Source: Candidatus Tayloriibacteriota bacterium
Lineage (GTDB): Bacteria > Patescibacteriota > Minisyncoccia > Phycocordibacterales > PALSA-1337
Assembly: GCA_003151615.1 (NCBI GenBank)
Contig: PLXZ01000001.1
Location: 244,318 to 308,317 of the forward strand
Direction: 5' to 3'
DNA: 64,000 nt
A model generated the notes under the pieces. That model saw only the letters and a program-made list of their open reading frames with translations, searched no databases and was not told where the DNA came from. The first letter of the stretch is position 1; the number at the start of each line of letters is the position of its first letter. Made by a program: the position numbers and the translations under genes. Below, one piece after another: positions 20,036-37,782 of the stretch.

Positions 20036-20057
20036 CAATTCTATCAAGACCGTTACT

Positions 20058-20276: not shown

Positions 20277-20301
20277 CAAATACTAAACACCAAACCAAAC
20301 T

Positions 20302-21073: not shown

Positions 21074-21110
21074 CCTGCATAATAGTGTCGCAAAAAGGAG
21101 ATTGTGCAAC
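21074..21110 (+). repeat. array repeat R2
   Basis: Exact 37-mer. Confidence 0.95.
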
Positions 21111-21294
21111 CAAATAAAACTTCGGTGACTCCATCCGTTGCAAGTTTGGTGAGGATGCGTTTGACTTCAGGCAACGGAGTCGGTGTTGCCTTTTCAAAAA
21201 GAGGATCAGCAGAATAGCAAAACGAACATTTCGCCGCGCAGCGAGTGCTGAAGTGCAGCGCAACGAAATCAAGATGAACTTTGTCGCCACTCAT
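21111..21294 (-). pseudogene. radical SAM protein, N-terminal ~60 aa only; cut at repeat R2 (S2)
   Basis: VALHFSTRCAAKCSFCY (CX3CX2C) …GVTEVLFGCT, then the frame runs into the repeat. Confidence 0.5.
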
Positions 21295-21300
21295 AAAATC

Positions 21301-22041
21301 TCATAGGCCGTTGTATTCAGGATTGCTTGGAGTGAGCACAAGCGACCGAACGTATGAAAATTCTTGACCAAGAATAAATTCAACAGCCTTGGCTAAATCT
21401 TTTGGATGTATCGCGCTATTTCCTTTGGAATTTATAAAGTCGGCGTCTGAAGTTCCATATTCAATATCGGCAGCAACGATGCCAGGACAAAGGTTGGTGG
21501 TTTTAATTCCTAATTTTGCAATTTCCGTTTGCAGAGCCGCTCCAAGACCATGCACAGCATATTTGGCAGAAATATAGGCTGACGGGCCAGTCATCACATT
21601 GTGCATTGGAAAACCCCAGTCTGCTACAATGTTAATAATACGCGCGTCTTTGCTATGTTTGAGAAAGGGGATTGCCTGACGGATCACATCAGCAGTTCCT
21701 ACGACACTGATTCGGAAGAATTCGGTGAGAGCATCACCGTCTATTTTAACAAGCTCGTTTTCCATCTTGCCGAATGCATTGCTAATGAGAACATCAATAA
21801 CATTGGTTTTTAATGACAACTCCTCAAACATTATTGAAATGCTTTTTGTATCTGCCAAATCGCAACGAAGAAGTGTAAAATCAGCAGACCCAAGCCCCTT
21901 TGCAAGGGCGTCCAGTTTTTTTTGATCACGGCCATGCAAATAAAGAGTGAAGCCGAGTTGAGCGAAGTGATGTGCCAAATAAGTTCCGATGCCAGATGTT
22001 GCACCAGTAATTAACATTTTCTTTTTCATCATAAAATTCAT
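21301..22041 (-). CDS. short-chain dehydrogenase/reductase (SDR), intact (S2)
   Basis: MLITGATSGIGTYLA (TGxxxGxG)… SAYISAKYAVHGLG (YxxxK). ORF extends to 22134. Confidence 0.8.
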   Translation of the reverse strand: MNFMMKKKMLITGATSGIGTYLAHHFAQLGFTLYLHGRDQKKLDALAKGLGSADFTLLRCDLADTKSISIMFEELSLKTNVIDVLISNAFGKMENELVKIDGDALTEFFRISVVGTADVIRQAIPFLKHSKDARIINIVADWGFPMHNVMTGPSAYISAKYAVHGLGAALQTEIAKLGIKTTNLCPGIVAADIEYGTSDADFINSKGNSAIHPKDLAKAVEFILGQEFSYVRSLVLTPSNPEYNGL

Positions 22042-22283
22042 TTTTCTAAAATTACGTCGCCATTGAAATACGTTGTCTCCATTATATCCAACTTTTTTAG
22101 AATGTAAAGGATGGACTTGTATTGTGGCTGGCATTTTGGCAAAAATTGCTGTTGCGATATAAAAACACCATTCATCAATGCTTATCAGGGAATTCGAGCC
22201 TTTTTTGAAGTGAGCGTATATGAGTGCGGCTGCTCGTTCCGCTTCGTAGCCGTAGGTTTTAACTTCGTCTCCGTCTCCACGCT

Positions 22284-22539
22284 TTAATACACTTTAACAG
22301 CTAACGGCACAGCTCGTGATCTGGACCTGAATAATTTTCCAGGCTGCCATTGCCAAACGTTTAGTTTCCAAGCGGTAGGTTGCCCGGATGAGAGTAGCAT
22401 TAAAGGGGCGGCTATACGGGCTTTTTTAGACCGTGCGATCCGATGTAAAGTTTGAATGTCTTTTGCGCTCAAATTGGGCAATATTTGCCTTGGATGAGAA
22501 TGCCAATCCCCTAGATATGTCCATTTGCGACACGATGAC
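22284..22539 (-). pseudogene. JAB/MPN metalloprotease C-terminal fragment, N-terminus removed at repeat R3 (S2)
   Basis: GDWHSHPRQILPNLSAKD = HxH-x8-S-xx-D JAMM-like motif; upstream part replaced by repeat sequence. Confidence 0.45.
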
Positions 22540-22576
22540 CCTGCATAATAGTGTCGCAAAAAGGAGATTGTGCAAC
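22540..22576 (+). repeat. array repeat R3
   Basis: Exact 37-mer. TTTGCGACAC at 22524-22533 is an inverted copy of repeat positions 11-20. Confidence 0.95.
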
Positions 22577-22655
22577 CAAATTTGACGGTGCGGATTCAAG
22601 GGGCGATTGGCCCGAGTTCAGTCCAAATAAAATAACAACTTTGAATCGAATCCGT

Positions 22656-23528
22656 ATGACATCATATACTAGAACAAAAAGTATCAGCTCGGATCTTGCC
22701 GATGGTTATGAGAATCTTCGAATTGCATTTGAAAAGCTGGGAGTAAAAATGGACTCTCCATCCATGGACGGCTTCCTGCGAAGAATTTTGTTCCCAGACG
22801 GCAGAAAGATATTTTTCACCGCGAATGCACTTCCATTAAATTGCGCCTCAGCGGTATCACTGGCACATGACAAATTAGCAACATATCAGGTTCTTATTGA
22901 AGAAGGCATTGCTATTCCAAAAGGAATCGCCTTTTTTGCTAGCGAGTTTCATCGTCGTCAAACACAAGCAGAACCTCAATTACTTCTCGAAAATTTACCT
23001 TCAGCAATCCTCGAACACTTTCCGGACATTACAGCGGCGAATTTTAAAGTGATTATTAAACCCGGACAGGGAAGGTGCGGCTATATGGTTAATATCTGCA
23101 AAACTCTTTTTGAAATCCAGTCATTCGCGAGAGATATTTTAACATCGTTTCATTATGGCTTAATCCAAGAATACATAAATGGGCCAGAGTATCGTGTTGT
23201 CATTTTGGATGAAAATCCCATTATCATATATCAAAAATGTTTAAGCCGTCTTGAAAAGGGGGAGAATGATAACCCCGTGCGTGGTGATACTGGCATTTCT
23301 ATTGAACTGGCAAAGGCACCTTTTGAAGTCATCGAAATTGCAAAGAAAGCTCATCGGGCTCTTGGCCTACGGTTTTCAGGTATAGATGTTTGTCTCCCTC
23401 AAAATATTCCGCCAGCAATAGTATTAGAAGTCAATTCGAGTCCTGGTTTTGATGCCTTGGAAGACGATTTTAATTTTGACGCGGAAAAATTAGCGGGTAT
23501 AATTGCAAAAGCGGTGCTTGCCACTTAA
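22656..23528 (+). CDS. ATP-grasp domain protein (RimK/glutathione-synthetase-like) (S3)
   Basis: FKVIIKPGQGRCGYMV…EYRVVILDENPIIIYQK…SGIDVCL…VLEVNSSPGF. Start at ATG 22656. Confidence 0.65.
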   Translation: MTSYTRTKSISSDLADGYENLRIAFEKLGVKMDSPSMDGFLRRILFPDGRKIFFTANALPLNCASAVSLAHDKLATYQVLIEEGIAIPKGIAFFASEFHRRQTQAEPQLLLENLPSAILEHFPDITAANFKVIIKPGQGRCGYMVNICKTLFEIQSFARDILTSFHYGLIQEYINGPEYRVVILDENPIIIYQKCLSRLEKGENDNPVRGDTGISIELAKAPFEVIEIAKKAHRALGLRFSGIDVCLPQNIPPAIVLEVNSSPGFDALEDDFNFDAEKLAGIIAKAVLAT

Positions 23529-23566
23529 TTTGTGTTAAAATTGTGCAAGTTTAGCTTCAAATTCTT

Positions 23567-23935
23567 ATGACGAATCAAAACCATAACATTCCTCGATTAA
23601 ACCTTGTTGCCATTCGGAGCCATCATCTTCAACTTTCTGTCCAGTTTTACTCGCTATTGGGACTGATTTTTGTGAAGGAGTGCCATGGAAAAGGACCTGA
23701 ACACTATTCTGCAAATAACGGTTCTTATGTTTTTGAAATATATCCTTCTAACGGTTCCGCGTCAGTTGAAAATGTTGTGCGCGTTGGGTTCTACATCAAA
23801 CACTTTAATGAGATTCTTGACACGCTGAACAAAAATGGGGCAATCCTACAGGTGCCGCCAAAAATTTCTCCGTGGGGAAGACGAATGGTCGTGCTTGATC
23901 CAGACAACAATCGTGTCGAGTTAATAGAAGAATAA
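23567..23935 (+). CDS. VOC/glyoxalase-family protein (S3)
   Basis: beta-alpha-beta-beta-beta module pattern (HLQLSVQ…WGRRMVVLDPDNNRVELIE). Confidence 0.55.
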   Translation: MTNQNHNIPRLNLVAIRSHHLQLSVQFYSLLGLIFVKECHGKGPEHYSANNGSYVFEIYPSNGSASVENVVRVGFYIKHFNEILDTLNKNGAILQVPPKISPWGRRMVVLDPDNNRVELIEE

Positions 23936-23945
23936 TCGTTTTGTC

Positions 23946-24634
23946 GTGAAATCGCATTGCAATCATGATTATGATGTCCTTGTAGTAGGTGCTGGCCCAG
24001 CCGGTTTGACTATAGCAAACCTTTTAGCCAGGACAAGTTTGAAATTTACCATTATCGAAAAAGAGACTTCTGGCCAAAGGCCAAGCCGAGCGACCGGTTT
24101 ACAACCCAGGCTTTTAGAAATCTTCGAATATATTGGCATCAAGGATCAGGTCATTAAGCGAGCTATCACACTGAAGGGAAGCCAGATATTTGTTGATGGA
24201 AACCAAACTGCCACGGTGTCCTTTTATGATCCAGTTACTAATTCGCACTCGCTTTCTTTAGATCAAGGTGTAATCGAAGCAATGCTTGCCGCAACCTTTC
24301 AGAAAGGTGGAGGCGTCATCGAGTGGGGCAAGCGTCTTGTGGGTCTACGACGGAAAAATGACCGCTGGATGGCAGATATTGCGACAACGATTCCCTCCCT
24401 TGAATATATTACCGCAGACATTATCATTGCATGTGATGGAGGCAAAAGCACTGTGAGAAAATTTGCAAACATTGAGTTTGTCGGGGAAACGTATTCAGAG
24501 ACTTCATTTATTTCTGATTGTCGCATCAGTTCCGATCTCAAGCCACAATATGTTTGCTTTTTATTTTCCAAAGAATATAGGCTCGTGTTAGTTCCATTCT
24601 CTCAGAGTAAATACAAAGTCAGTGGTGGTATGCA
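23946..24634 (+). pseudogene. FAD-dependent monooxygenase, N-terminal ~230 aa; 3' end cut at repeat R4 (S3)
   Basis: YDVLVVGAGPAGLTIANLLAR (GxGxxG FAD fold)…DGGKSTVR; frame continues into the repeat (…HLHNSVAKRRLCN). Family normally ~400 aa. Confidence 0.6.
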
Positions 24635-24671
24635 CCTGCATAATAGTGTCGCAAAAAGGAGATTGTGCAAC
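24635..24671 (+). repeat. array repeat R4
   Basis: Exact 37-mer. Confidence 0.95.
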
Positions 24672-25224
24672 TGGGCATGACAAGGCGAATCTGCTCGGTT
24701 CGTTGCTGACAACACAATTTCAACTTGGCGCAATGGCGCGGGCGAACCGGCCAGAGGAGGAACGTCGTGATTTTTATCTCTTCATTGACGAATTTCAGAA
24801 CTTTTCGACCGATGCTTTTGCTTCGATTCTGGCCGAAGCCCGCAAATACCGCTCCTGTCTTACGCTGTCACACCAATACATTGACCAGTTGCCGCTGCCG
24901 ATCCGGCAGGCGGTTTTTGGCAATGCCGGAACTCTGATTTCATTTCGCATCGGCAACACCGATGCCGAGGTGATGGAAAAGGAATTCGGCGGCGCATTCC
25001 CGGCGGCTGTGCTCGTTGACCTTGACCGCTATGAGGCGGCGGTGAAGTTGCTTGAAGACGGAATGAACCGGGAACCGTTTCGGGCGAAGATGCTGCCGCC
25101 GCTGGAAAATCGCGTTGGCCGGAAGGACAAACTCATCACACTGTCGCGCGAGCGGTTTGCCATGCCGCGCGCGAAGATTGATGAAAAGTTGAAGCGGTGG
25201 ATGGATTCGATGGTTGCTCAATGA
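24672..25224 (+). pseudogene. FtsK/HerA/TraG-superfamily ATPase C-terminal fragment; 5' end missing at repeat R4 (S4)
   Basis: Walker-B-like LFIDEFQNF then …TLSHQYIDQL…FGNAGTLISFRIG; no N-terminal Walker A; begins at repeat. Confidence 0.45.
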
Positions 25225-25236
25225 CAGAGTGTTTAT

Positions 25237-25797
25237 TTATTCATGGCCGAAGCAAAGTTGTTTCATGCCATCCCAAGCGTAAACCAATGCTGATATTACC
25301 GTGCAAACCGCGCACACAAGGAACCAATGCATATTAAGACTTCGATCCCATTTCAACAAAATCAAAAAAATAAGAATCATTTGTGACCCAGTCGCAATTT
25401 TCCCAATGATGTGTGGATTCACTGAAACCTTTCCGACAATCGTGCGTATAATTGTAAAACCAACGAGTAGTAACAAGTCCTGTCCGATTATCACACCAAA
25501 GAGCCAGAGCGGAATATAGTCTAAATAAATACCGTGATAAAAGCTCAAGATGATAATACCTACCGCAAGTAGCAATTTATCCGCAAGCGGATCAAGGATA
25601 GCCCCGATTTCGCTTTTCTGATTGAAGTGTCGAGCAATAAACCCATCCATCAAATCCAAAATTAATATGGCTATTAAAGAGGCTATTGCCAATACATGAT
25701 AAATATTTTCTCCATAGAAAACATAACAAATCAGTCCGATGGAAAAATATGGTATCAGTAAAATGCGCAAAATGGTGATTTTGTTCGCAGTCGTCAT
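25237..25797 (-). CDS. CDP-alcohol phosphatidyltransferase (S4)
   Basis: DLMDGFIARHFNQKSEIGAILDPLADKLL = D-G-x2-A-R…G-x3-D-x3-D motif; multi-TM. Confidence 0.7.
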   Translation of the reverse strand: MTTANKITILRILLIPYFSIGLICYVFYGENIYHVLAIASLIAILILDLMDGFIARHFNQKSEIGAILDPLADKLLLAVGIIILSFYHGIYLDYIPLWLFGVIIGQDLLLLVGFTIIRTIVGKVSVNPHIIGKIATGSQMILIFLILLKWDRSLNMHWFLVCAVCTVISALVYAWDGMKQLCFGHE

Positions 25798-25970
25798 GGT
25801 GTTACACGACCCTCTTATACTACCAATTGTTAATGCCATGATTGTTGAAATAATAGCGTAAACATTCAATTGCAACAATAGTAGGCCGAACTTTCTACCT
25901 TTGTAAAAGAATGCGCGACTGGCTTGCCGCAAAGCGCAAACCTTGACGCCTACCGTGACTGCCTGGCATC

Positions 25971-26143
25971 GTGCAAAATGGCGCGATGGAATCACGTCTG
26001 CCCCGTTTCAACCGCGCGCCCATCGTTGCCCCCATGCAGCTTGAGGAGCGCGACCGCCAGATCATCCGGCTCATTCACCGGCATCGTTTTCTCCGTTCCG
26101 ACCACATTGTTTCGTTCATCGGCGGCAGCCAGCAGCAGATTTT
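25971..26143 (+). pseudogene. N-terminal fragment of a winged-helix-like protein; cut at repeat R5 (S4)
   Basis: …LEERDRQIIRLIHRHRFLRSDHIVSFIGG then the frame enters the repeat. Confidence 0.3.
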
Positions 26144-26180
26144 CCTGCATAATAGTGTCGCAAAAAGGAGATTGTGCAAC
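26144..26180 (+). repeat. array repeat R5
   Basis: Exact 37-mer. Confidence 0.95.
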
Positions 26181-27162
26181 AACGCAATAGAGCCTGGGTC
26201 GAGCCAATTACCAATGCCGTAAGTATAGTCACCAATACCATGCCTGCCAGATTTACCTTGATAACAAATAGCAAAAGGACGCAAATCCAAATGACTATGC
26301 ACCAAGAGAGAATCCTAATTGTTCCCCGCTGCGCCGCCGCCCGGCACATGAAATAGGTGAATGGAAACGCAAGCAATTGAACACCGAGAAGGAATCCGCC
26401 AATGACACTTGTGGAAAGTTTCAATTCCTGTGAAGCGTAAAGTGCGGTAAAAGAAATGACAGCTCCTATCGTATCAGCAATTAGGAAGTAGCCCAACAAC
26501 AAGCCGATGCGATCCCTATTTAACGCTGCAAACATCTCACGAACAGTTATTCTAGGCCGCCCGCGGGCTTTCAAAAGCGGTCGCCGGAGCAAGATCAAGG
26601 CAAGGACTCCAAAAAAAGAATAAAACAGGGACGTAAACAAATAAGGCAGTTTTGAATTTAATCCGAAAGAATTTTGCAAAAAAAACACTACCATAAAACA
26701 CAGGATGCCGCCTAAATAGCCAAACCCCCACGCAAAGCCCGAAAAAGATGCCTTGTCCTTTCCAGTGACAAGGCTATTTAGCAATGAATTATAAATGTTT
26801 CCAGTCAGATAAAAAAGAGCGTTTGCAACAATAAATGCACCCACAATGTGCCAGTAAGATTTACCTATAACGAGAGACAGGGCTAACCCTGAAATAAAAG
26901 AGACGGCGGCTACAATTGAAAAAACATTCCATCTGCCGTTTCGATCAGCCCATCGGCCTGCAAATGGTCCAGCAAGAACAGCAATTAGCGCCGATGCTGA
27001 AAGCAAGATGCCCCATGACAAATCACTGTTTGTTCCCGGCTTGAAAACGAACTGGTAAAGGTAAAGCGGGAACAAATATGCATGAAATATGAGCGTGAAG
27101 GCCGAGCTGGCAAAATCAAACAGGCTGTATGCAACCAGCGGCTTGAGGTTGCTATTGTGCAT
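26181..27162 (-). CDS. MFS transporter whose C-terminus runs into repeat R5 (probably 3'-truncated) (S5)
   Basis: 11+ TM helices; the last residues (…TISFLRHYYAG) are the repeat translated. Confidence 0.55.
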
Positions 27163-28177
27163 CGTAAGGATGATACCAGAAATCCTCCTGCACGATAAGA
27201 TGAACCAGACACGAAAATTGCATTTTTACATCTGCTGGCAGCGGCAAAAGTGAAATACATTCTTCAACTGTTGCCTCCGCTTGTGTCAGTGTATTCAATG
27301 CGAATTCGCGGACATCTTTTGTCCAGATTTTCTCAAGAAGTTTTAACCACTGGTCGCAAGTCAGCATTCGTTGATCCAGTTCTGTGTTAATATCCGAGGT
27401 GCCATGAAGCCGAAGGTAAATAGCCAATGGAAAGGAAAATGTGATGCGCCAAGAATCGCCGGCGGCGTGCCGTTTGCGAAGATTGTCAGGCTGCAAATCA
27501 TGATAGTCGTTTGAAAGTTGATAGAGTTTTCCCATGGCATGACCAAGTTTTTGAAAGCTGTCACCGAGATCGTTTCGGTTTGCAATCACGGCAGCGGAAG
27601 CAAAACTATACTCGAACATTGCGCTGGTTTTTTGATAAATTTGCTCGTTGTATCCCTTGCATATCCATTTGTTTATTGGTTCAACCATTAGGACATCATA
27701 CATCTCGCCGATTGTTAGCTGGCGATAAGTCTTGAGAAGTAGCTTGAGTATTTCTGGTTGATCTATGACTAAATTTATTGCTTCAGCACATAGAAAGTGC
27801 GCTTGAAGGGCTGAAGCCGGGGTTCCTATATTTGCTTGAGATGATTGGTGGCCATGCCTCACATCATCCCCGTCCAATATATCATCCACCAATATGGAGG
27901 CGGCATGGCACATCTCAATGCTTAAGCAGATGTCGAGAAGCATTTTTTCAGGAAGATTTCCAGCAATGTTCGTCGCAGTTTTAAGAAATAAGTAAGATCT
28001 GATTTTCCTGCCCTTCTCAATTCTTTTCAAAATTTCACTTCCCAGAAAAGTATCCGAATAAAGGTCTGCTATTCGCTTGGCAAGCTCTCGGTTAAGTGAA
28101 ACACGAAACTGCCCTAAATGCTCTACGCACGTCATGGTTTCGGTCGTAAAATCTTTTTGTGTTTTGGTTGATGTCAT
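27152..28177 (-). CDS. polyprenyl synthetase (trans-isoprenyl diphosphate synthase) family (S5)
   Basis: FARM LVDDILDGDDVRHG and SARM-like GKLYQLSNDYHD. Confidence 0.7.
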   Translation of the reverse strand: MTSTKTQKDFTTETMTCVEHLGQFRVSLNRELAKRIADLYSDTFLGSEILKRIEKGRKIRSYLFLKTATNIAGNLPEKMLLDICLSIEMCHAASILVDDILDGDDVRHGHQSSQANIGTPASALQAHFLCAEAINLVIDQPEILKLLLKTYRQLTIGEMYDVLMVEPINKWICKGYNEQIYQKTSAMFEYSFASAAVIANRNDLGDSFQKLGHAMGKLYQLSNDYHDLQPDNLRKRHAAGDSWRITFSFPLAIYLRLHGTSDINTELDQRMLTCDQWLKLLEKIWTKDVREFALNTLTQAEATVEECISLLPLPADVKMQFSCLVHLIVQEDFWYHPYDAQ

Positions 28178-28188
28178 AAAATTTATAA

Positions 28189-28794
28189 TTAAGGGGATTC
28201 GGCAGGCTTTTTGCGTTCTGTAATACTAATCAAGAAATGTTGAATTGCCCAACCGATTGAGCAGCCAACTATTGAGCTAATCCAAATAAATAATTCTCGC
28301 CCCCAGTCAGGAGTATAGCAAACCATGATTAAAGCAACAATTGCCACAGAAAGTGCGGCTATGAATTTAATTCTCGGTGAACGCGGCACAATAGTCGCCA
28401 CTGGAAACAATACCAAATATGCAGAACCGTAGAGACTTTTATTTAGACCACCCGTGTGGGCTGTCCACCAGCCAAATATCGATACGGTTTCGATAAAAAA
28501 CAGGACGTTCAAGAAGTCTCGAAGTTTAATGCGTTGATTGAAGTAAATGGCAGCCACACCGGTTGTGGCTTGGAAGATTAAAAACAATGCTTCATGACCG
28601 TGGCCAGTAACTAAATTATCCAGCCACGGCGTGCATATTGATTTTGGCGGAGAAATTCCAGCAAGCCCCGTGTTTTCTCCAGCAAATACTAGCAAGCAAA
28701 GGATTCCATCAGCAATGAAAATGAAAAGTGTCACCCAGACCGGATCGAGTGATTCATTTCGGTTAGACACTGTCATACAGGAAATCAATGCCAT
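28189..28794 (-). CDS. integral membrane protein (201 aa) (S5)
   Basis: Six hydrophobic helices; co-oriented with the prenyl synthase. Confidence 0.5.
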   Translation of the reverse strand: MALISCMTVSNRNESLDPVWVTLFIFIADGILCLLVFAGENTGLAGISPPKSICTPWLDNLVTGHGHEALFLIFQATTGVAAIYFNQRIKLRDFLNVLFFIETVSIFGWWTAHTGGLNKSLYGSAYLVLFPVATIVPRSPRIKFIAALSVAIVALIMVCYTPDWGRELFIWISSIVGCSIGWAIQHFLISITERKKPAESP

Positions 28795-29053
28795 CAGACA
28801 ATACGGAGGTCAAGCATTTTGTATTTTTTGATTTTATATTGCAACGGCACACGTTCTTTTTGGTGAAAGCTTCTGCTTTGATCTGCAAAAAGTCGGAGGT
28901 GGGCAGCGGCTATTTTGGCGCATCACCTCTTATTGCTGAACTGCCGGAGCCGGAGTTTGCCCAATCACCCCCTGAATGCGAACCGTCAAATTTGACACCC
29001 CGCTTTGAAGCTGGGCTAAAAGTTTATCGTTCATATCGGCGATTTTTGATTTG

Positions 29054-29090
29054 CCTGCATAATAGTGTCGCAAAAAGGAGATTGTGCAAC
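29054..29090 (+). repeat. array repeat R6
   Basis: Exact 37-mer. Confidence 0.95.
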
Positions 29091-29184
29091 CCCCCCGACT
29101 GTTGATTATCCAACTGTTTTGGAAAGCAGTATTCTTAATAAAAATGGAGGCAAAAGTTCAATAGGATGTTGTCCAACGAAATGA

Positions 29185-29583
29185 ATGAAAAAGATTTTTA
29201 TAGCCATTATAGTTACATCTTGGCTCGTAATTTTTGCCTTGGGAATAATTCTGTCGCTGGCTACGCCGCATTATATGCAAATGAGTGCGGGAACGATAAA
29301 AGCCAAAAAAGTAAGTATAGAAGGTCAGCCTTTTATCAGAATTGATGGCGAAGCGATGAATTATTTGGGACAGTTTCAGTTGATAAACGTGGATTGTGAT
29401 GATTCCAGCAAGCGAATCACGGTCACTTGTTGCATTATTTATAAGAATCCATTCAGCAAAATTGTGTTAGGTGATGGTTGGCCGGTTTTTTGCCCACTCG
29501 AAGGTGCAAAGCCTGGAAAATACTCCGTGGTTTATAAAAGTTCAGAAGGAGAACAGACAGCCGGGACATTTGATGTCCCGTAA
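29185..29583 (+). CDS. small secreted/anchored protein, paralog A (S6)
   Basis: Signal anchor; shares NY(L/F)GQ(F/I)Q(L/S)INVD…KYSVVYKSSEGE(Q/T)TAGTFD(V/I)P with the next gene. Confidence 0.55.
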   Translation: MKKIFIAIIVTSWLVIFALGIILSLATPHYMQMSAGTIKAKKVSIEGQPFIRIDGEAMNYLGQFQLINVDCDDSSKRITVTCCIIYKNPFSKIVLGDGWPVFCPLEGAKPGKYSVVYKSSEGEQTAGTFDVP

Positions 29584-29620
29584 TCTGCTTTCCAATTGAC
29601 TGCCCAGTGAAACCGTCAAA

Positions 29621-30025
29621 ATGAAAAAGAGATTGTTAGTAGCGTTCGTTTTTACGATTTTGACTTTGATTATCATTGCCGCAGGAGTTGTCCTTCGACT
29701 TGCCACGCCCGCAGAATGGCCAATTCAGGCAGGAACATTAAAAATTGAAAGCTTTAAGATTGGAGATCAGCCATTCGTGATGATAGAAGGGCAGCCGATG
29801 AATTATTTCGGACAAATTCAATCAATCAATGTTGATTTTGACGGAACGAGTAATCGCCTTATTGTTAGCCGATGTCTGGTTCGATGGAATCCATTCAACA
29901 AAATTATTGTAAATAATCAATGGCCCGTCGTTTATCCTCTTGATGGCATAAAAGCAGGTAAATACGCCGTCGTCTACAAAAGCACAGAAGGCGAAACAAC
30001 AGCCGGAACTTTTGATATTCCATAA
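29621..30025 (+). CDS. small secreted/anchored protein, paralog B (S6)
   Basis: Tandem paralog of 29185-29583. Confidence 0.55.
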   Translation: MKKRLLVAFVFTILTLIIIAAGVVLRLATPAEWPIQAGTLKIESFKIGDQPFVMIEGQPMNYFGQIQSINVDFDGTSNRLIVSRCLVRWNPFNKIIVNNQWPVVYPLDGIKAGKYAVVYKSTEGETTAGTFDIP

Positions 30026-30415
30026 CCAAAACAAGTTTTCAATTGACTGCCTACCTCAATCGCCGATAAATGGAACACTCCCGATGAGTATCACCGTCAA
30101 GTTATAGGAGGGTTGCGGCTAGGATTATTCCGAATCCACACTGACCGGACGGTTGTTTTGAACAGTTTGCGCAATTATGGTGAATAAATCGGACGCAATG
30201 TTGCGATAGTAGTTGTGCATTGAAAATAAGAGTCCTCCATGATTGCTTCTCCGGTTTTTTGGTAAACGTCGCTTTAATGTTTTCCGCCGTCATATAACGT
30301 GATGTAATCCTTCTGTTTTTTTGATCAAACAATTCTCCACTTGCCATCGACGCCGTTGGCATATCGCAGCAACCCCAAGTTCCCATCCTTAACCGTAAAT
30401 AACACGAGAGCAACT

Positions 30416-30540
30416 CACCAGAATCGCCCCTTTTTCATGTTGCCGCTTCCGGCAATTCTGCCCGTCTTCATCGAAAGGCTGCGGGGAGATACGCTTCAGG
30501 GTGGCAGTTCATTTCAAACCAACAACCAAAGGAGAAAACT
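30416..30540 (+). promoter_or_regulatory. 125-bp structured leader (copy A) upstream of DUF1281-like gene (S6)
   Basis: ~85% identical to 32103-32232; contains hairpin TTGCCGCTTCCGGCAA and a conserved GGGTGGCAGTTC block before the RBS. Confidence 0.5.
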
Positions 30541-30978
30541 ATGCCCAACTGGTGCAACAACAAGCTCGTCGTGCTTGGACCCGACGAGGACGTTGAACGG
30601 TTCAAGAAAACAGCCATCGGCAATTCGCCGTGGCACACGAAAGAAGAAAAGAAAAGCGTCCTCAACTTCCACAGCCTCGTGCCCGTCCCGCCGGAGATTG
30701 TATCGGCTGGCTATGGGGAGGCCGGTTACGAATGGGAACGGCAAAACTGGGGCTGCAAATGGGGCGCGTGTCATACCCGACTGGTGGACGGACGGAAAGG
30801 CCACCTCGAATACAGCTTCGAAACCCCGTGGTGTCCGCCCATTCCGTTTCTCGAAAAGCTGGGACGGGAGTGGCCGATGCTCACGTTCCTCCTCGACTAC
30901 GAAGAACCGGGCATGAGCTACAAGGGCATCGCCAAAGTTCATGGCGAGGCCGTTGAAGATCATTGCTTCGACCTCTGA
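30541..30978 (+). CDS. DUF1281-like plasmid leading-region protein (MPNWCNN N-terminus) (S6)
   Basis: MPNWCNNKLVVLGPDEDVERF… From memory, this N-terminus matches a family common on conjugative plasmids. Confidence 0.5.
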   Translation: MPNWCNNKLVVLGPDEDVERFKKTAIGNSPWHTKEEKKSVLNFHSLVPVPPEIVSAGYGEAGYEWERQNWGCKWGACHTRLVDGRKGHLEYSFETPWCPPIPFLEKLGREWPMLTFLLDYEEPGMSYKGIAKVHGEAVEDHCFDL

Positions 30979-31007
30979 AACACAAACAACCAACAGAAAG
31001 GAAAATT

Positions 31008-32087
31008 ATGAGTGCAGTCATGGAATCAAAAGATCAAGTCACCCTGTATTACCGTGGAGGTTCATCAGACAAGGTGTATCAGGCCGCGATTGAACCGAGG
31101 GGCGACGAGTTCGTCGTCCACTTCGCCTACGGACGGCGCGGGTCAACATTGACGACCGGGACGAAGACAAGTTCACCAGTGGACTATGACACGGCGAAGA
31201 AAATCTTCACCAAACTCGTCAGCGAAAAGAAGGCCAAGGGCTACATCGAAGGCGAGAACGGCACGCCCTATCAACACCATGAGCACACGGACAAACAGGC
31301 ATCAGGCATTTTGCCCCAATTGTTGAACGCCATCGAAATGGCCGACGTGGAGAAGTTCCTGCACGATGACGCATATTGCGCCCAGGAGAAATTCGACGGG
31401 CGACACATCCTCATCCGCAAGCAGGACGAACACGTCGAGGGCATCAACAAGAAAGGATTGCTGGTCGGATTGCCGGAAACCGTGTCAGACGACATCCGCA
31501 ACCTGTCCGGCAGCTTCATTCCCGACGGTGAATCCATCGGCGATGAGTATCACGTCTTTGATCTCCTCGAATGGAACGGCGAGAACTTGCGTCCGTTGCC
31601 CTACAGGAAACGGCGCGCTCACCTGATGGAATTGCTCTCCGGTTCGCAGCTTCAGTTCATCAAGCTGGTCGGGACGGCGTTCACGACGGCGCAGAAGCTT
31701 GAACTGTGGCACCGGTTGAAGTGGGAAAACCGCGAGGGCATCGTGTTCAAGCGGCTGGACGCGCCCTACACGCCGGGCAAGCCCAACAGCGGCGGGCCGC
31801 AGTTGAAATTCAAGTTCACCGCCACGGTGTCTGCAATCGTTGCCAAAATCAATGTCCAGCGCAGCGTGGAGATCAGTTTGTTCAAGGGCAGGAGCTTGAT
31901 TTCGTGCGGCAACGTCACCATCCCGGCCAATCACGACATCCCCACAGTGGGCGCTGTCGTGGAGGTGCGGTATCTCTACGCCTTCAGGGAAAGCCATTGT
32001 TTGCACCAGCCGGTGTATCTGGGAATCCGTGATGATGTTGAACCCGGCGAGTGCATTGTCCAGCAGTTGAAATTCAAGGCGGAGTAA
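31008..32087 (+). CDS. WGR domain fused to ATP-dependent DNA ligase (S6)
   Basis: WGR (VTLYYRGGSSDKVYQAAIE…FVVHFAYGRRGSTLT); ligase adenylation motif KxDG (EKFDGRHILI). RBS AAAGGAAA before ATG 31008. Confidence 0.7.
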   Translation: MSAVMESKDQVTLYYRGGSSDKVYQAAIEPRGDEFVVHFAYGRRGSTLTTGTKTSSPVDYDTAKKIFTKLVSEKKAKGYIEGENGTPYQHHEHTDKQASGILPQLLNAIEMADVEKFLHDDAYCAQEKFDGRHILIRKQDEHVEGINKKGLLVGLPETVSDDIRNLSGSFIPDGESIGDEYHVFDLLEWNGENLRPLPYRKRRAHLMELLSGSQLQFIKLVGTAFTTAQKLELWHRLKWENREGIVFKRLDAPYTPGKPNSGGPQLKFKFTATVSAIVAKINVQRSVEISLFKGRSLISCGNVTIPANHDIPTVGAVVEVRYLYAFRESHCLHQPVYLGIRDDVEPGECIVQQLKFKAE

Positions 32088-32093
32088 AATCAC

Positions 32094-32232
32094 AGGGGCG
32101 ATTCACAAGAATCGCCCTTTTTTCATGTTGCCGCTTCCGGCACATCTGGCCGTCTTCATGGAAACGGCACGGGGCGATACGATTCAGGGTGGCAGTTCCT
32201 TTCAATAAACCAACAACCACAGGAGCATCACA
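32094..32232 (+). promoter_or_regulatory. terminator hairpin plus 130-bp structured leader (copy B) upstream of ardC-like gene (S6)
   Basis: GGGGCGATTC-ACAA-GAATCGCCC+T6, then the same TTGCCGCTTCCGGCA hairpin and GGGTGGCAGTTC block as copy A. Confidence 0.5.
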
Positions 32233-33090
32233 ATGAAAAATCAAACGTATGACCGTATCACCGACCGAATCATCGCCTTGATGGAGCAAGGCACCGTCCC
32301 ATGGCACAAGCCGTGGAAAGCCCGAACCGGGTTGCCCCGGAACTTCGTCAGCAAACATCCCTATCGCGGCATCAATGTCTTTCTGTTGATCGCCATGCGG
32401 TATGAATCACCGTTCTGGCTCACCTGCCGTCAGGCAAATCAGTTGGGTGCCAGCGTCAAGAAGGGCGAGAAGGCTTGTCCAGTTGTTTTCTGGAAACAGA
32501 CGACCGTTGAGGACAAGCAAACGGGCGAAGAGAAGAAAAAATATCTTCTTCGCTTTTACCACGTTTTCAACACCGCCCAATGTGACGGATTGAAGCTGGA
32601 TTCAGCCATAGCGGAGGCGCTGTTGAGTCCCACATCAAAACCGGAGGACATTGTGGCCGGTATGCCGCAGCCGCCAGTTCTGAAGCACGGCATGACCCAC
32701 GCCTACTATTCCCCCCGTGAAGATTGCGTCAGCCTGCCGCCACGGGAGCGGTTCGAGCGGACGGAGGATTATTATTCTACCGTCTTCCACGAGCTTGTTC
32801 ATTCGACAGGTCACGAAAAGCGGTTGAAGCGATCCACGCTCACGGAATCAGCCGGTTTCGGCTCCAATCCCTACTGCAAAGAGGAATTGATTGCCGAAAT
32901 GGGTGCGGCGTTTCTGTGCGGACAGGCCGAGATTGCCGAGCGGACGATTGACAATTCCGCCGCATATCTCAAAGGCTGGCTTGAACAGTTGCGTCATGAC
33001 AAGATGCTCATTGTGCAGGCGGCGGCGCAGGCGCAGAAGGCGGCGGACTTTGTTCTGGGAAAAAGCGAACCCGCAGAGGTTGCGCCATGA
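32233..33090 (+). CDS. ardC: ArdC-like antirestriction protein (ssDNA-binding N-domain + HExxH metalloprotease) (S6)
   Basis: VPWHKPW…RGINVFLL… and HELVHSTGH zincin motif. Confidence 0.8.
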   Translation: MKNQTYDRITDRIIALMEQGTVPWHKPWKARTGLPRNFVSKHPYRGINVFLLIAMRYESPFWLTCRQANQLGASVKKGEKACPVVFWKQTTVEDKQTGEEKKKYLLRFYHVFNTAQCDGLKLDSAIAEALLSPTSKPEDIVAGMPQPPVLKHGMTHAYYSPREDCVSLPPRERFERTEDYYSTVFHELVHSTGHEKRLKRSTLTESAGFGSNPYCKEELIAEMGAAFLCGQAEIAERTIDNSAAYLKGWLEQLRHDKMLIVQAAAQAQKAADFVLGKSEPAEVAP

Positions 33091-33548
33091 AAGACTTCAA
33101 TCCGAAGGAATTCAAGGTCGTCGCCTTGCGGGAATGTCCGGTGCCGGACGAGATGAAAATCTGTGCGGAACCGCAGCAGGTCGTGGATTATTGGCGGATG
33201 CACATTGCGACACATCCGTATTTCAACCCGGATTGCGAGTGTTTCGTGGTGCTGCTTCTAAACATACGCAGGCGGGTCAAGGGGCATCATCTGGTGTCCA
33301 TCGGAACGATGGACACCATCTTGGTGCATCCGCGCGAGGTGTTCAGCGTGGCGGTTGCGATGAAGGCGGCTTACATCGTGCTCATTCACAACCACCCATC
33401 GGGTGACCCGACGCCAAGCGACGCGGACATCAAGGTCACGCGCGATTTGATTCGCGCCGGCCAGTTGTTGAAAATCGAAGTTACGGATCATGTCATTATG
33501 GGAAATCCTGAATATTCCTCGTTGCGAGGGTTGGGATATTTCTTTTAG
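33087..33548 (+). CDS. RadC-like JAB domain protein (DUF2466) (S6)
   Basis: VLIHNHPSGDPTPSDADIKVT JAMM motif; start overlaps ardC stop. Confidence 0.8.
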   Translation: MKDFNPKEFKVVALRECPVPDEMKICAEPQQVVDYWRMHIATHPYFNPDCECFVVLLLNIRRRVKGHHLVSIGTMDTILVHPREVFSVAVAMKAAYIVLIHNHPSGDPTPSDADIKVTRDLIRAGQLLKIEVTDHVIMGNPEYSSLRGLGYFF

Positions 33549-33797
33549 CTCCGGGTAATGCCGAGTTCACGGGGTGATTCTTCAGAACGCTGAAGAATCA
33601 CCCCTTTTTTATTTCTTCGACTCGGCATTAACGGGATTATGCCGAGCTCGGCATAATGGTTATTTCTACAATTGAATCCCATTAACCCGGACAAGGAAAC
33701 TTGCCGGGTTTTTAATTTCCATTTATTAACTCCAATCCGATTTGTAAATATTTAATAAAAACCCGCATAACAAGTATGCGGGTGGTCGAGGAATCAA

Positions 33798-34193
33798 TCA
33801 GGGACAAACTGGCTGCAAGAGCTTAATGCTTTCCAAAGCATCATTGAAATGGCCTTTTGATGCAAAGGCATCAATCAGCTTGGCAATTTCTTCGAGTGTC
33901 AAAGAACGCCCTGCAAGCTTGACTGCTTCAAGAGCGGTGCTTGCGCGTGCGTCAACTAGACAAGCATTAACCAATTTGTTAATCTCTTCTAGTGTTAAGG
34001 GCCGGTCGGCGAGTTTAGCCGATTCGAGAGCGTCATTAAACCAGCCCTTTGTCACACAGGCATCAATTAATTTCGCGATTTCTTCGTTTGTTAAAGAACG
34101 CTTTGCAAGCTTGGCGGCTTCAAGGGCAATTCCGATCTTTCCATTACGGATTGAAACGGCAATGAGATAATCAGCAGCATCGTCTAGTAACAT
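33798..34193 (-). CDS. HEAT/PBS-lyase-like repeat protein (S6)
   Basis: ~30-aa repeats (RSLTLEEIAKLIDA…GHFNDALESxKL) four times. Confidence 0.5.
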   Translation of the reverse strand: MLLDDAADYLIAVSIRNGKIGIALEAAKLAKRSLTNEEIAKLIDACVTKGWFNDALESAKLADRPLTLEEINKLVNACLVDARASTALEAVKLAGRSLTLEEIAKLIDAFASKGHFNDALESIKLLQPVCP

Positions 34194-34403
34194 AGGTGGC
34201 TCCTTTGGTTTTGATATATGCTGCTGATTCCGTAAGTGGGATCGGTGCAGCAGTCAGAAATCCTTCGCCGCAAATCCCTGACTGCTGAAACGATTCCACT
34301 CATAGCTGCTTGGCAACTGTGGCGAATGCTATCATAAGGCTTTATTATGGTCAAAGCGCTGACCTGGTTATTTGTTAGATTTCTTGAAAAGTTCTTTTAA
34401 TGC

Positions 34404-34970
34404 GTGTATGATTCAGCCGTGAAAATTGTGGGGCTTTGCGGAAGATCTGGCGCTGGGAAAAGCAGCGTAGTCGCAATTGTCCGAGAAAGTCTCCCCGCTG
34501 TGCAGATCATTTCTACTGGCGATGCAATTCGTCAACTGTTAAATAGGCGCGGAATTGAAATCAATCATTACAATCTCCAATCCATAACAAAAGAGATTCT
34601 TGCAGACAGAGGAGAAAATTATATTTCCATTGTTTTTGATCTCATTGATTCTAAATTTCCAATAACTTTAATTGATTCATTTCGTCGCCTTGAAGATGTT
34701 GCGTGTGTAACCAAGGCGTTTGGACAGCCACTAATAATTTCAATCAGCGCGCCCGCAACGGTTCGTTTTAATCGATTGCTTGCCAGGTCAAGACCGTCGG
34801 ACGCTTTAGATGAAGCTTCGTTCAAGGATTTAACATTGCTTGAAAATTCTTGGGGCGTTGAGAATCTGTGTCGGATTGCTGAAATACAAATTGAAAATAC
34901 CAACACATATGCGGAACTGCGTAAGCAGACCCTGGCTGTTCTCCGGAAAGTATTTCAGCCATTCTGCTGA
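34404..34970 (+). CDS. P-loop NTPase/kinase-like protein (S6)
   Basis: Walker A GLCGRSGAGKSS at N-terminus. Confidence 0.5.
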   Translation: MYDSAVKIVGLCGRSGAGKSSVVAIVRESLPAVQIISTGDAIRQLLNRRGIEINHYNLQSITKEILADRGENYISIVFDLIDSKFPITLIDSFRRLEDVACVTKAFGQPLIISISAPATVRFNRLLARSRPSDALDEASFKDLTLLENSWGVENLCRIAEIQIENTNTYAELRKQTLAVLRKVFQPFC

Positions 34971-35037
34971 TAAAATAGGTGCAACATCATATGTATAGGA
35001 ATATTGAGTCATTGGTCTTGCCATTTCTGGATCAAGA

Positions 35038-35074
35038 CCTGCATAATAGTGTCGCAAAAAGGAGATTGTGCAAC
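35038..35074 (+). repeat. array repeat R7
   Basis: Exact 37-mer. Confidence 0.95.
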
Positions 35075-35097
35075 AATATTTAAGACCTACCGAAGCT

Positions 35098-35697
35098 ATG
35101 TGGATGTCTGTTGAATTCGAGGTTCCACGGGGAGGCATGCAGCATATTTCATGGCCGTCATTTTGGCAACGAGTTCTAGTCCGGCAATGGAGTTTCCCAT
35201 TAATTCTTATGTCACCCAAGGCCTTTGCGGAATGGAGAAATAATCAATTCAATATTTTCGGAAGAAAAACCGAACCAGATTCGCACCTTAAGGCGGCTGT
35301 TGGACACGTGCTGGAAATTTTACGCAAATCAAATTATCCAAAAGTTACAGATTGGCGATTGTTTATACATTGGGCACAACGAATTAGGATACAGCGCATT
35401 AAAATTCCCAAAGAGATTGTAGAACCGCCATGCGATCACATTTTACCCCAAGCCAAAAAATGGTTTCGTTTTAGAAGTGATCCCATTCCCAATACTGATT
35501 GCCGCGATGAGTTCTGGTTTGGTGACTTGCCTTCAATTTCGGCACCCGAACCGAATGACGGTTTTCGCCTTGAATTCAAAGCCGTTGTTAATAACTGGCT
35601 TTATATTTATTTGCTGCCGTGGCTTGGATTTATCGGCTTTTTGATAGCATGTGGTAGGTTGCTTTTCAATCTTTGGGAGAAAGGCACTCCCCAATAA
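35098..35697 (+). CDS. hypothetical protein with C-terminal TM helix (S7)
   Basis: ORF from ATG 35098; no family recognised. Confidence 0.4.
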   Translation: MWMSVEFEVPRGGMQHISWPSFWQRVLVRQWSFPLILMSPKAFAEWRNNQFNIFGRKTEPDSHLKAAVGHVLEILRKSNYPKVTDWRLFIHWAQRIRIQRIKIPKEIVEPPCDHILPQAKKWFRFRSDPIPNTDCRDEFWFGDLPSISAPEPNDGFRLEFKAVVNNWLYIYLLPWLGFIGFLIACGRLLFNLWEKGTPQ

Positions 35698-36477
35698 AAA
35701 ACAATCTTCTTACGAAGATTGTTTTGCAAAATCTGGCGACTCAACACTTTACCGTTGTGAAGCTACAGGATTTTGATTTCTGCGCACGTTAAGCATGGCT
35801 GCCCGTCGAGCTTGGTCAAAATCTCTGGCAAAAGCGGCTCTAAATTCCCTCCGCTTCTTCCAGTAATTTTTACTGAATAGATGTTTGATTGATTTCATAT
35901 CGTTTAAGATGCGTAATTTAGTTCAAAGAACAATTTGCCATTTTAAGCTTTGCCCTTAATAAGGTGCTTAAAAAGCGTCCCACGTCTCTATTAAGTAGTT
36001 TAATGCTTATTTATCATTTTTGCAAATTGTAAAAAGTGGCAGATGTTCCTTTCACGAAGGAGAATCGTCTGCAGTCCCCTTGAAAATCCGCGCGACCGGA
36101 TATTGTCAGCTTTTCGAGCTGCGGAATCCGCCCGCGACAAAGATGATAAGGCATATCAGCAGAATCAGGCCAAGCCCACTGCCGCCGATGACGGGACCAC
36201 CAAAGTAAAACCCACCGCCGCCGAACAAGAGAAGCAGAACAACCATGAGTAGTAATAGGTTCATAGGCCGATAAAATAACACGCCATTGCACGGTTGCTA
36301 TGGGGTCTTCACCCCATAGCGCACAAAATGTGAAATATTCCTGTAAAATAGTTACTCTCTTAAACTTGCCAGAATTGGCACGTTTGCCCACCTACTGATT
36401 TTCCCGGCGGAAGATAGGATTTCATTCGGATGCAGTTCGACTTCGCGAGCCGCACCAGTTCTTCACAACCAAATAAC

Positions 36478-36514
36478 CCTGCATAATAGTGTCGCAAAAA
36501 GGAGATTGTGCAAC
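36478..36514 (+). repeat. array repeat R8
   Basis: Exact 37-mer. Confidence 0.95.
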
Positions 36515-36944
36515 GCTTTCACAAAATTGGTTCAATCTGTTCAGCATCATCGGGATCATCGGCAGTCTTTGGGTTGCAATCATCACGCTCCGCTCTGAAG
36601 CCAAAACAAGGCGCGTCGCAAACCTCCTCACCATCACCGCCAACCACCGCGAGATCTGGAAGGAGTTTTTCCACTCTCCACAGTTAGCGCGCGTCATTGA
36701 CCCTTCCGCCGACGTTTCAAAGACACCGCCAACTCCAGCCGAGGAATTTTTCGTCTCTCTGGTCGTTTCCCACATCAGCAGCGTCTATGAAACTCTCAAG
36801 GACGACCTACTAACCAAGCAGGAAGGATTACGTCGCGATGCCGCATGGTTCTTTTCCCTGCCGATTCCAAAGGCAGTTTGGACTGCGACCAAACTGCTGC
36901 AAAATCAAGATTTTGCAGCTTTCATTGAATCTTCTTTGAAGTAG
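36515..36944 (+). CDS. hypothetical membrane-associated protein; 5' end undefined, begins at repeat R8 (S8)
   Basis: Open from the repeat; hydrophobic FNLFSIIGIIGSLWVAIITL then a soluble domain. Possibly 5'-truncated. Confidence 0.3.
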
Positions 36945-37075
36945 TGTGAGAACTTGAATTTGACTGTGGGATATCCAAGGAATCGTCCAAGAAGAAGCCC
37001 CGTCAAGGCGGGGCTGTGAAGTGATGTATTCGTTTCATACATCATCAAATTTCGTTGGGACAAAACAAGCTTCAG

Positions 37076-37330
37076 CTAATCTATGCAGGAACAAAGATGG
37101 GGACGTATTGGAACCCCCTGTGCCCGCACGATGTAACGTTCGCCAGATTGGCGTATTGCCCCAAACTCGACAAGCAGATCGAGATAAGCATTAACAGTCG
37201 TTGAAAAATCAACAACGTTGCTGTGACGGGCTCTCTTGTATGCGACAACCACCTCGCGTGCTGTAAAGCTGTCACGAGAATAGATAATTTTGGCAAGAGC
37301 TTTTTGGTTTTCAATAATGCGTGTGTTCAT
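37076..37330 (-). CDS. small hypothetical protein (84 aa) (S8)
   Basis: ORF track. Confidence 0.35.
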   Translation of the reverse strand: MNTRIIENQKALAKIIYSRDSFTAREVVVAYKRARHSNVVDFSTTVNAYLDLLVEFGAIRQSGERYIVRAQGVPIRPHLCSCID

Positions 37331-37454
37331 ATGTTTGTTAATAGTCTATATTAGTTATACTAAACATTTATCCATTTTGCAAATTCTTCCCAGAGTAATT
37401 TCCCAAACTTGGCTCTCCAGGCTGGGAATTTGGCTTCGGGCAAAATTTTAGAGT

Positions 37455-37491
37455 CCTGCATAATAGTGTCGCAAAAAGGAGATTGTGCAAC
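37455..37491 (+). repeat. array repeat R9
   Basis: Exact 37-mer. Confidence 0.95.
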
Positions 37492-37745
37492 GGATATATG
37501 TATATGATATTAGGTATAATCATTTTAGATACTAAATACAACATGCTTACACTAATCGTATTCTTAATACTCTGTGTTATATCACCACCTCTGGCTTGGT
37601 TTGTATTTATCATTTGGGCTATATACTGGATATATATCTTAATAGTGGCGAGTAGAATCTAAGGAACTAGATGAAGTGCTGCACCAATTCCTGCTGCATT
37701 TGTTGCTGCATGAACTCCTGCTTTTACAACTGGATTATTTTTTAT

Positions 37746-37782
37746 CCTGCATAATAGTGTCGCAAAAAGGAGATTGTGCAAC
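37746..37782 (+). repeat. array repeat R10 (last); followed by an AT-rich stretch
   Basis: Exact 37-mer. Confidence 0.95.

Follow-up and report, generated by a model that had tools for sequence, protein, structure and literature searches.

Why should two genes standing close together in one genome be headed by almost the same non-coding leader, and what kind of signal is that leader? The question is raised by a stretch of 64,000 nucleotides (nt) from the 333-kb metagenome contig PLXZ01000001.1 of Candidatus Tayloriibacteriota bacterium, hereafter the window, in which a DUF1281-like gene and an ardC-like gene are each preceded by a copy of the same element (copies A and B). The original prediction likened these leaders to the Frpo or single-strand initiation (ssi) promoters that drive early expression from transferred single-stranded DNA (ssDNA) in the leading regions of plasmids. 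Our analysis did not bear out that comparison. The sequence evidence indicates instead that the leaders are probably double-stranded DNA (dsDNA) promoter–operator cassettes belonging to an establishment regulon, comparable with that of ArdK in plasmid R388, and not Frpo elements.

Copy A (30401–30544) and copy B (32089–32236) both lie on the + strand. They had been described as about 85% identical, and this figure was reproduced by the mean column identity of a MAFFT alignment (85%); blastn gives 83.2% over 143 nt (E=2e-36), and an ungapped repeat finder pairs 30398–30526 with 32086–32214 (129 nt at 81%). The shared sequence block and the strong ribosome-binding site attributed to each leader are likewise there, since GGGTGGCAGTTC is the same in both copies and has no other exact occurrence in the window, and AGGAG stands 6–7 nt 5′ of the ATG in both. 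The terminator placed ahead of copy B is also real (32094–32119, with 11 stem pairs, a loop of 4 nt and a T run). Other parts of the description need correction. A perfect hairpin with a 6-bp stem exists in copy A (30440–30455), but the corresponding sequence of copy B, TTGCCGCTTCCGGCAC, forms a 5-bp stem. The repeat itself is genuine, but the homology begins farther upstream than had been supposed and takes in the terminator, of which copy A has a decayed version retaining six of nine stem pairs, as read from the sequence. Finally, both elements are present, but the window holds further related ones, at 30979–31007, 25924–25988 and 36366–36477. The parts of these elements, with positions given relative to the putative transcription start, are as follows.

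30408–30435, + strand: decayed upstream intrinsic terminator of copy A, GAGCAACTC-ACCA-GAATCGCCC and a T run, seen in alignment with the intact terminators of copy B and of native copies.
30440–30455, + strand: dyad of copy A, TTGCCG-CTTC-CGGCAA (family core TTGCC-N6-GGCAA), at about −62 to −47, identified by its pattern, the core being nearly invariant in 54 copies.
30463–30467, + strand: CGTCT box of copy A, 7 nt past the dyad, at about −39 to −35, identified by the rigid spacing in the family.
30490–30495, + strand: −10-like hexamer of copy A, TACGCT, 22 nt past the box, identified by the invariance of its first, second and sixth positions, its spacing and the geometry of Replic_Relax genes.
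30496–30540, + strand: putative 5′ untranslated region (UTR) of copy A, with TCA, GGGTGGCAGTTC (30499–30510), a CA-rich tract and AGGAG (30530–30534), from the sequence.
32094–32123, + strand: intrinsic terminator of copy B, with an 11-bp stem, an ACAA loop and a T run, from a terminator scan.
32128–32143, + strand: dyad of copy B, TTGCCGCTTCCGGCAC, its outer pair broken, identified by pattern.
32151–32155, + strand: CGTCT box of copy B, identified by pattern.
32178–32183, + strand: −10-like hexamer of copy B, TACGAT, from the sequence and the conservation in the family.
32184–32232, + strand: putative 5′ UTR of copy B, with GGGTGGCAGTTC (32187–32198), a CA-rich tract and AGGAG (32221–32225), from the sequence.
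30979–31007, + strand: remnant of a third leader before the ligase gene, consisting of a CA-rich tract and a Shine-Dalgarno sequence, in alignment with the full ligase leaders of four loci (L003, L004, L006 and L007).
25924–25988, + strand: Replic_Relax-type promoter with dyad TTGCCGCAAAGCGCAA, CGCCT (25947–25951), CAAAAT (25974–25979), 6 nt and ATG (25986), identified by a geometry common to 19 of 19 loci.
36366–36477, + strand: primase-type leader with dyad TTGCCAGAATTGGCAC, CACCT and TAGGAT, 89% identical to positions 927–1056 of locus L005.

To judge from the alignment, the promoter part of the ligase leader was lost by deletion in the lineage of the window, and the ligase gene would therefore now be read together with DUF1281. 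The primase-type leader is interrupted within its CA-rich tract by a 37-nt repeat at 36478.

The two copies belong to a large family. A profile hidden Markov model built from 11 copies was first applied to the window and to genome loci selected by their ArdC, and it recovered 61 copies, spread over the window together with 26 of the 80 loci, all on the strand of the gene and at most five per locus. Metagenome contigs were scanned with the pattern TGCC-N6-GGCAA-N7-CGTCT-N22-TACGCT, which matched at least 120 stretches. Over the 200 loci and the window, 201 sequences in all, nhmmer found at least 303 copies; they are distributed over 146 of these sequences, with one to six in each. Within a sequence the copies share one strand in 144 of the 146 cases, mixed orientation being confined to two loci, and they are co-oriented with the gene that they precede. 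The carriers are mostly contigs of metagenome-assembled genomes (MAGs) of Verrucomicrobia and unbinned metagenome contigs. In one locus, L007, three copies are nearly identical even within a 22-nt stretch that is otherwise variable, which suggests exchange between copies within one element. In another (L096, 46–254) a single dyad is flanked symmetrically by AGACG and CGTCT boxes and serves two divergent genes for a Cys-rich protein of 109 amino acids (aa); this contig is only 1.1 kb long, so the arrangement could be an assembly artefact and counts as weak evidence only.

The anatomy of the cassette was defined from 54 copies selected without any DNA pattern. From 5′ to 3′ it comprises a terminator hairpin with its T run, TTGCC-N6-GGCAA, 7 nt, CGTCT, 22 nt, TAnnnT, a leader, AGGAG and ATG. 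The sequence of the terminator hairpin varies among copies while staying paired, and terminator-like hairpins stand just upstream of 222 of 296 family copies; the copies before primase genes, which come first in their series, mostly lack one (present in 2 of 34). The dyad core is nearly invariant. The final CT of the CGTCT box is the same in 54 of 54 copies, as are T1, A2 and T6 of the hexamer, the middle positions of which are free (TACGCT, TACGAT, TAGGCT, TACACT, TACAAT and TATGCT all occur). The 22 nt between box and hexamer are variable and G+C-rich. On the 3′ side of the hexamer follow TCA, about 3 nt, a conserved GG, an optional 9-nt insert, GTTCAT, the CA-rich tract, AGGAG and ATG. Among 279 copies, a sample that includes pattern-selected ones and is therefore biased for the boxes themselves, the dyad and the box are 7 nt apart in 278, and the box and the hexamer 22 nt apart in 270. 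Unlike this rigid upstream part, the distance from hexamer to ATG is flexible, ranging from 39 to 72 nt (with the 9-nt indel).

A second class of sites bears on the role of the hexamer. Outside the full leaders we found 23 further dyad-plus-box sites, each with YAnnnT 22–23 nt downstream, and many of them head a Replic_Relax gene. There the hexamer lies exactly 6 nt before the ATG in 19 of 19 evaluable loci, the window included, and no Shine-Dalgarno sequence is present. The geometry can be seen, for example, at L004 3147–3211 and in 18 other loci, among them the window at 25974–25988. These genes appear to be read from leaderless mRNAs whose first base would be the A of the ATG, 7 nt past the −10. 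The constant hexamer-N6-ATG arrangement thus ties dyad, box and hexamer together as one promoter, and it marks TAnnnT as the true −10. On this basis we infer the promoter assignment of the leaders and place their start sites near the conserved GG, at about 30503 and 32191. Taken together, the rigid spacing of the boxes, the invariant TAnnnT and the leaderless geometry of the Replic_Relax genes argue for an ordinary dsDNA promoter with an upstream dyad.

The dyad, for its part, is conserved in sequence rather than in pairing, as expected for the site of a dimeric protein with half-sites one helical turn apart. Indeed, its inner pair is GC in 23 copies, GU in 11, AU in 8 and unpaired in 12, and the outer pair is broken in 14 of the 54. 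Pair counts of the six-pair hairpin gave no measure above shuffled controls (e.g. 212/500 and 105/500) and no covariation. The RNAalifold consensus likewise contains only a 4-bp hairpin at the dyad, with a covariation term of 0.04.

The following mechanism may be proposed. The upstream unit would be ended by the intrinsic terminator, which would insulate each cassette. The dyad (about −62 to −47) and the CGTCT box (about −39 to −35) would recruit or regulate RNA polymerase, most likely through a dimeric DNA-binding protein encoded by the element. TAnnnT would act as the −10; transcription would start close to the conserved GG, some 7 nt farther on, and each mRNA would begin with about 45 nt of unstructured, CA-rich 5′ UTR carrying a strong AGGAG. 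At least six gene families are preceded by the cassette, and they would thus form one co-regulated establishment regulon. Among 279 copies the downstream gene encodes ArdC in 92, a WGR-ligase in 54, the Cys-rich 109-aa protein in 46, a DnaG-like primase in 35, a 91-aa protein in 33, DUF1281 in 12 and a 93-aa protein in 4; the cis-element thus stands in separate promoters of six or more families including ardC, in addition to those of Replic_Relax and of a helix-turn-helix (HTH) gene. We infer that a regulator exists and which way it acts. With the dyad situated 5′ of the core promoter, we favour an activator-type or polymerase-recruiting site; equally possible is repression that gives way to a burst of expression once the element enters a naive cell.

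Several observations weigh against this interpretation. The family has no conserved or TTGACA-like hexamer at −35. The centre of the dyad, at about −54.5, is neither a classic repressor position nor that of a class I or class II activator. No universal regulator gene was found in the loci, an XRE-type HTH gene with the same dyad and box being present in only three of them. A strand-specific function would likewise agree with the strictly shared orientation of the copies, and a modest ssDNA hairpin formed by the dyad is energetically feasible. Most of the metagenome copies, moreover, were selected by a pattern in which several boxes were fixed, so that their statistics are biased. Clustering of 1,179 neighbouring open reading frames (ORFs) revealed no universal HTH or sigma gene, and a generic sigma-70 promoter scan returned no site above its threshold in either leader.

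The regulon of R388 (IncW) offers the closest parallel. In that plasmid ArdK represses PardC, Pssb and other promoters, which overshoot in a burst after transfer (PMC3937220). As in the present family, one cis-element of the ArdK/StbA regulon stands in separate dsDNA promoters before ardC, ssb and other establishment genes (PMC3937220). The two are unrelated in sequence, however, and the cassette described here differs in that its dyad precedes the core promoter, a CGTCT box is added and a −35 is lacking; furthermore, the whole 130-nt unit, terminator and 5′ UTR included, is homologous from gene to gene. The additional directional box and the upstream dyad suggest recruitment or activation rather than simple occlusion. 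Promoters with a good −10 but no −35 consensus, in which a conserved repeat bound by a protein lies just upstream of the −35 zone or extends into it, are familiar from phages, in the Mor- and C-dependent promoters of Mu and the cII-dependent promoters of lambda. The leaders share these traits, but the phage sites centre at about −43 or straddle the −35, whereas here the dyad is centred at about −54.5 and a separate box occupies −39 to −35.

The alternative with the best remaining claim, itself unlikely, is that the dyad is a small-hairpin ssDNA signal, in which the TTGCC/GGCAA hairpin and CGTCT are read in a strand-specific manner by the DnaG-like primase (ssi-type priming) or by a polymerase. 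The hairpin promoters of phage N4, which are recognized by a polymerase, offer a comparison. As ssDNA the dyad alone has a median folding energy of −5 kcal/mol, with 38 of 54 copies at −4 or lower, and the near-constant strand of the copies (144 of 146 sequences) and the presence of a primase gene in the element would both suit such a signal, as would a hairpin with a conserved box 7 nt away, which in general resembles relaxase and primase sites. Yet the inner and outer pairs are broken in 22–26% of copies and nothing covaries. This explanation also leaves unaccounted for the invariant TAnnnT at a rigid 22 nt and the hexamer-N6-ATG arrangement, while the position of the element is fixed relative to a downstream Shine-Dalgarno sequence and ATG, and L096 uses one dyad in both directions.

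It is quite improbable that the leaders are promoters of an alternative sigma factor of the extracytoplasmic function (ECF) type, in which CGTCT would be the −10, TTGCC the −35 at a distance of 18 nt, and TAnnnT a part of the transcript. CGTC is the commonest ECF −10 motif and 18 nt is near the ECF range of spacings. Nevertheless, the AAC of ECF −35 boxes is missing from TTGCC, the right arm of the dyad would be left without a role, and neither the invariant hexamer 22 nt downstream nor the 6-nt spacing at the Replic_Relax starts (19/19) would be explained; nor was a sigma gene seen among the conserved neighbours. The related geometry with GGCAA as the −35 was discarded, its spacer being a mere 7 nt. 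A sigma-54 promoter (TGGCAC-N5-TTGC), sought by eye on GGTGGCAGTTC and TGGCAAG...CGTCT, was rejected, the GC of the −12 element being missing or misplaced and the block being split by the 9-nt indel.

A structured cis-regulatory RNA transcribed from farther upstream, such as a riboswitch, an attenuator or a protein-binding 5′ UTR, is a very unlikely explanation. About 130 nt of conserved non-coding sequence before genes would be in keeping with it, and Rfam holds the radC and STAXI motifs, which precede radC, anti-restriction, ssb and integrase genes of mobile DNA much as the leaders do. Unlike these motifs, the leaders match no Rfam family, either at the gathering threshold or at E<=10, and have no conserved RNA structure or covariation. 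In addition, the terminator immediately upstream leaves no room for a conserved promoter, and it is the best-conserved boxes that are rigidly spaced, like DNA sites, while the part that would be transcribed tolerates indels.

We attach very little probability to the Frpo/ssi reading from which the question arose, which supposes that a long hairpin in the transferred strand restores a double-helical −35 and −10 for the host RNA polymerase. Its appeal lies in the leading-region-like genes (ArdC, primase, methylase and ligase beside a coupling protein gene) and in the way that homologous non-coding elements recur singly ahead of the early anti-defence or establishment genes, as Frpo does in F and ColIb-P9 (PMC11541004). 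The defining feature of Frpo, however, is a long hairpin that rebuilds the duplex −35, −10 and UP elements (PMC11541004), and the leaders have neither such a fold nor a −35. The stability of copy A does not exceed that of dinucleotide shuffles on either strand, as RNA or as DNA (z +0.16 to +0.48); copy B reaches z ~ −4 owing to its terminator, and for the 54 family cores folded as ssDNA the mean z is −0.8 (+ strand) and −0.65 (− strand). In ssDNA folded in 300-nt contexts the pairing probability is 0.61–0.66 for the −10 and 0.50–0.55 for the −35 zone, against a background of 0.55–0.57, and both zones are more than 0.8 paired in 0 and 1 of the 54 copies, so that the folds show no hairpin-rebuilt −35/−10 geometry. 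Nor did homologous elements emerge from plasmids: when the whole 3.2-kb block was run by blastn against the 72,556 plasmids of PLSDB, among which F-like and I1 plasmids should be represented, the matches fell in coding regions only and the leaders were unmatched, known Frpo sequences not having been compared directly.

Finally, recombination or mobility sites, whether integron attC-like cassette boundaries or repeats resembling repetitive extragenic palindromes or miniature inverted-repeat transposable elements, are scarcely tenable, for although the copies lie between genes, gene order and content differ between elements and the near-identical L007 copies suggest exchange, the leaders have no terminal inverted repeats, are much shorter and less symmetric than attC, and are oriented with the downstream gene, whose Shine-Dalgarno sequence and start codon each copy carries at a set distance.

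The genes behind the two leaders form a block in the window.

30541–30978, + strand: DUF1281_C / Api92-like gene, served by copy A (Pfam PF18406, E=1.8e-9).
31008–32087, + strand: gene for a WGR domain and an ATP-dependent DNA ligase (Pfam PF05406, PF01068).
32233–33548, + strand: ArdC (32233–33090) and overlapping RadC (33087–33548) genes, served by copy B (Pfam PF08401, PF18818, PF04002).
33571–33604, + strand: terminator closing the ArdC-RadC unit, from a terminator scan.

In native loci the module runs in the order type IV coupling protein (T4CP), Replic_Relax, primase, DUF1281, ligase and ArdC-RadC; upstream lie the T4CP gene, a CHC2 zinc-ribbon gene, a 664-aa gene and the Replic_Relax gene, and the module may also hold an orphan N6-methylase and a Fic protein. 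Judged by sequence, such a set of genes is what one would typically meet on the establishment or leading side of a conjugative element. The original prediction had compared the leaders to expression signals ahead of anti-restriction genes in plasmid leading regions, and the native gene order upholds this context, the elements standing before anti-restriction and establishment genes of a conjugative-type element. A scan of IMG/VR with the leader pattern gave zero matches. Literature searches returned nothing specific on this element or on kilobase spacers in CRISPR arrays of Patescibacteria, and the cassette is previously undescribed, none having been found in Rfam, plasmid records or the literature.

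The block, at about 30336–33669 (3.3 kb), has ~55% G+C, as compared with ~42% around it, and its homology to native elements stops near 33669. ArdC relatives at 70–93% identity are mostly unnamed metagenome proteins, those with organism names being from Verrucomicrobia, and in genome loci (mostly Verrucomicrobia, Limisphaerales MAGs) the identity reaches 85%. The NusG of the host (11984–12529), in contrast, is closest to proteins of Patescibacteria (Parcubacteria/Paceibacterota). The block is therefore foreign to its present host, which points to a recent transfer of DNA between phyla. The same arrangement is present on three contigs, and a one-off chimera is therefore unlikely.

Just upstream of copy A, at 29185–29583 and 29621–30025, lie two paralogues in tandem, whose small products match no Pfam family and carry a hydrophobic segment at the N terminus; this pair sits in the low-GC part of the repeat interval that holds copy A. 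On the other side, the 100 nt or so that follow RadC, comprising the terminator and the palindrome ATTATGCCGAGCTCGGCATAAT (33636–33657), recur in one verrucomicrobial locus (L028, 2459–2549 and 5754–5850) at 98% identity and in both orientations, and may be another repeated element of this family of mobile elements.

How, then, did the block come to lie where it does? It is found inside an array of unusual dimensions, next to the following genes.

18634–19677: cas1 (Pfam E=8e-68).
19553–19996: cas2-sized ORF with no Pfam match.

Beginning 3 nt past the cas2-sized ORF, ten identical 37-nt repeats, CCTGCATAATAGTGTCGCAAAAAGGAGATTGTGCAAC, extend over 19999–37782 at spacings of 291–5984 nt, with whole genes on both strands in the intervals; leaders A and B lie in the sixth. 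The repeat (19999–20035 and nine others) contains a −10-like CATAAT and a Shine-Dalgarno-like AAGGAG, and it holds the start of several ORFs that continue into the following interval (e.g. 22551–23528 and 36489–36944). Directly adjoining cas1 are the transfer-messenger RNA and smpB (17653–18086 and 18102–18587, both on the − strand); a tRNA-Ile with anticodon TAT is encoded at 58408–58481 (+).

Further fragments of the element family, 71–100% identical to native sequences, occur at 22577–22610, 24672–25216, 25916–26143, 28937–29037, 36320–36477 and 36522–36960. They lie at or near the junctions with the third, fourth, fifth and eighth repeats, one of them at most 7 nt after the eighth and another ending 17 nt before the sixth. 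The repeats cut genes in mid-frame, a T4CP gene right after the fourth and a Replic_Relax gene right before the fifth, and the eighth cuts the primase-type leader. In related contigs of Patescibacteria, with Cas1 63–67% identical, cas1 and a gene of 105–117 aa are followed at once by a homologous repeat of about 37 nt, in arrays at the following positions.

L204, 11362–14668, and L205, 1758–5069: repeat spacing of 3.27 kb.
L206, 11368–14691: repeat spacings of 2.1 and 1.2 kb.
L207, 11355–19668: repeat spacings of 177–4044 nt.

Two of these arrays hold fragments 79–83% identical to the same element family (L206, 12345–12768, and L207, 18408–18521). It is conceivable, if doubtful, that native early promoters and anti-restriction genes were taken up as kilobase-long 'spacers' between the cas1-linked 37-nt repeats of a Patescibacteria genome. 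The idea is suggested by the element pieces that abut several repeats, by the repeat that cuts a leader and by the two related arrays that hold fragments of the same family. If Cas1 makes these insertions, the array would be a CRISPR-like memory, or one for capturing genes, with inserts the size of genes.

The cassette occurs at least 300 times, and where its mobile elements come from named genomes, the hosts are for the most part Verrucomicrobia sampled from soil, peat and lakes. Repeated leaders before anti-restriction genes need not be ssDNA promoters of the Frpo type; searches for such promoters based on hairpins would miss elements like these, and searches based on motifs could mislabel them. 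The regulon also flags three uncharacterized products, the Cys-rich 109-aa protein, the 91-aa protein and DUF1281, as candidates for anti-defence functions. Lastly, the cassette is a convenient tracer of the element family, and it is in this capacity that it exposed fragments of these elements in the cas1-linked long-spacer arrays of Patescibacteria.

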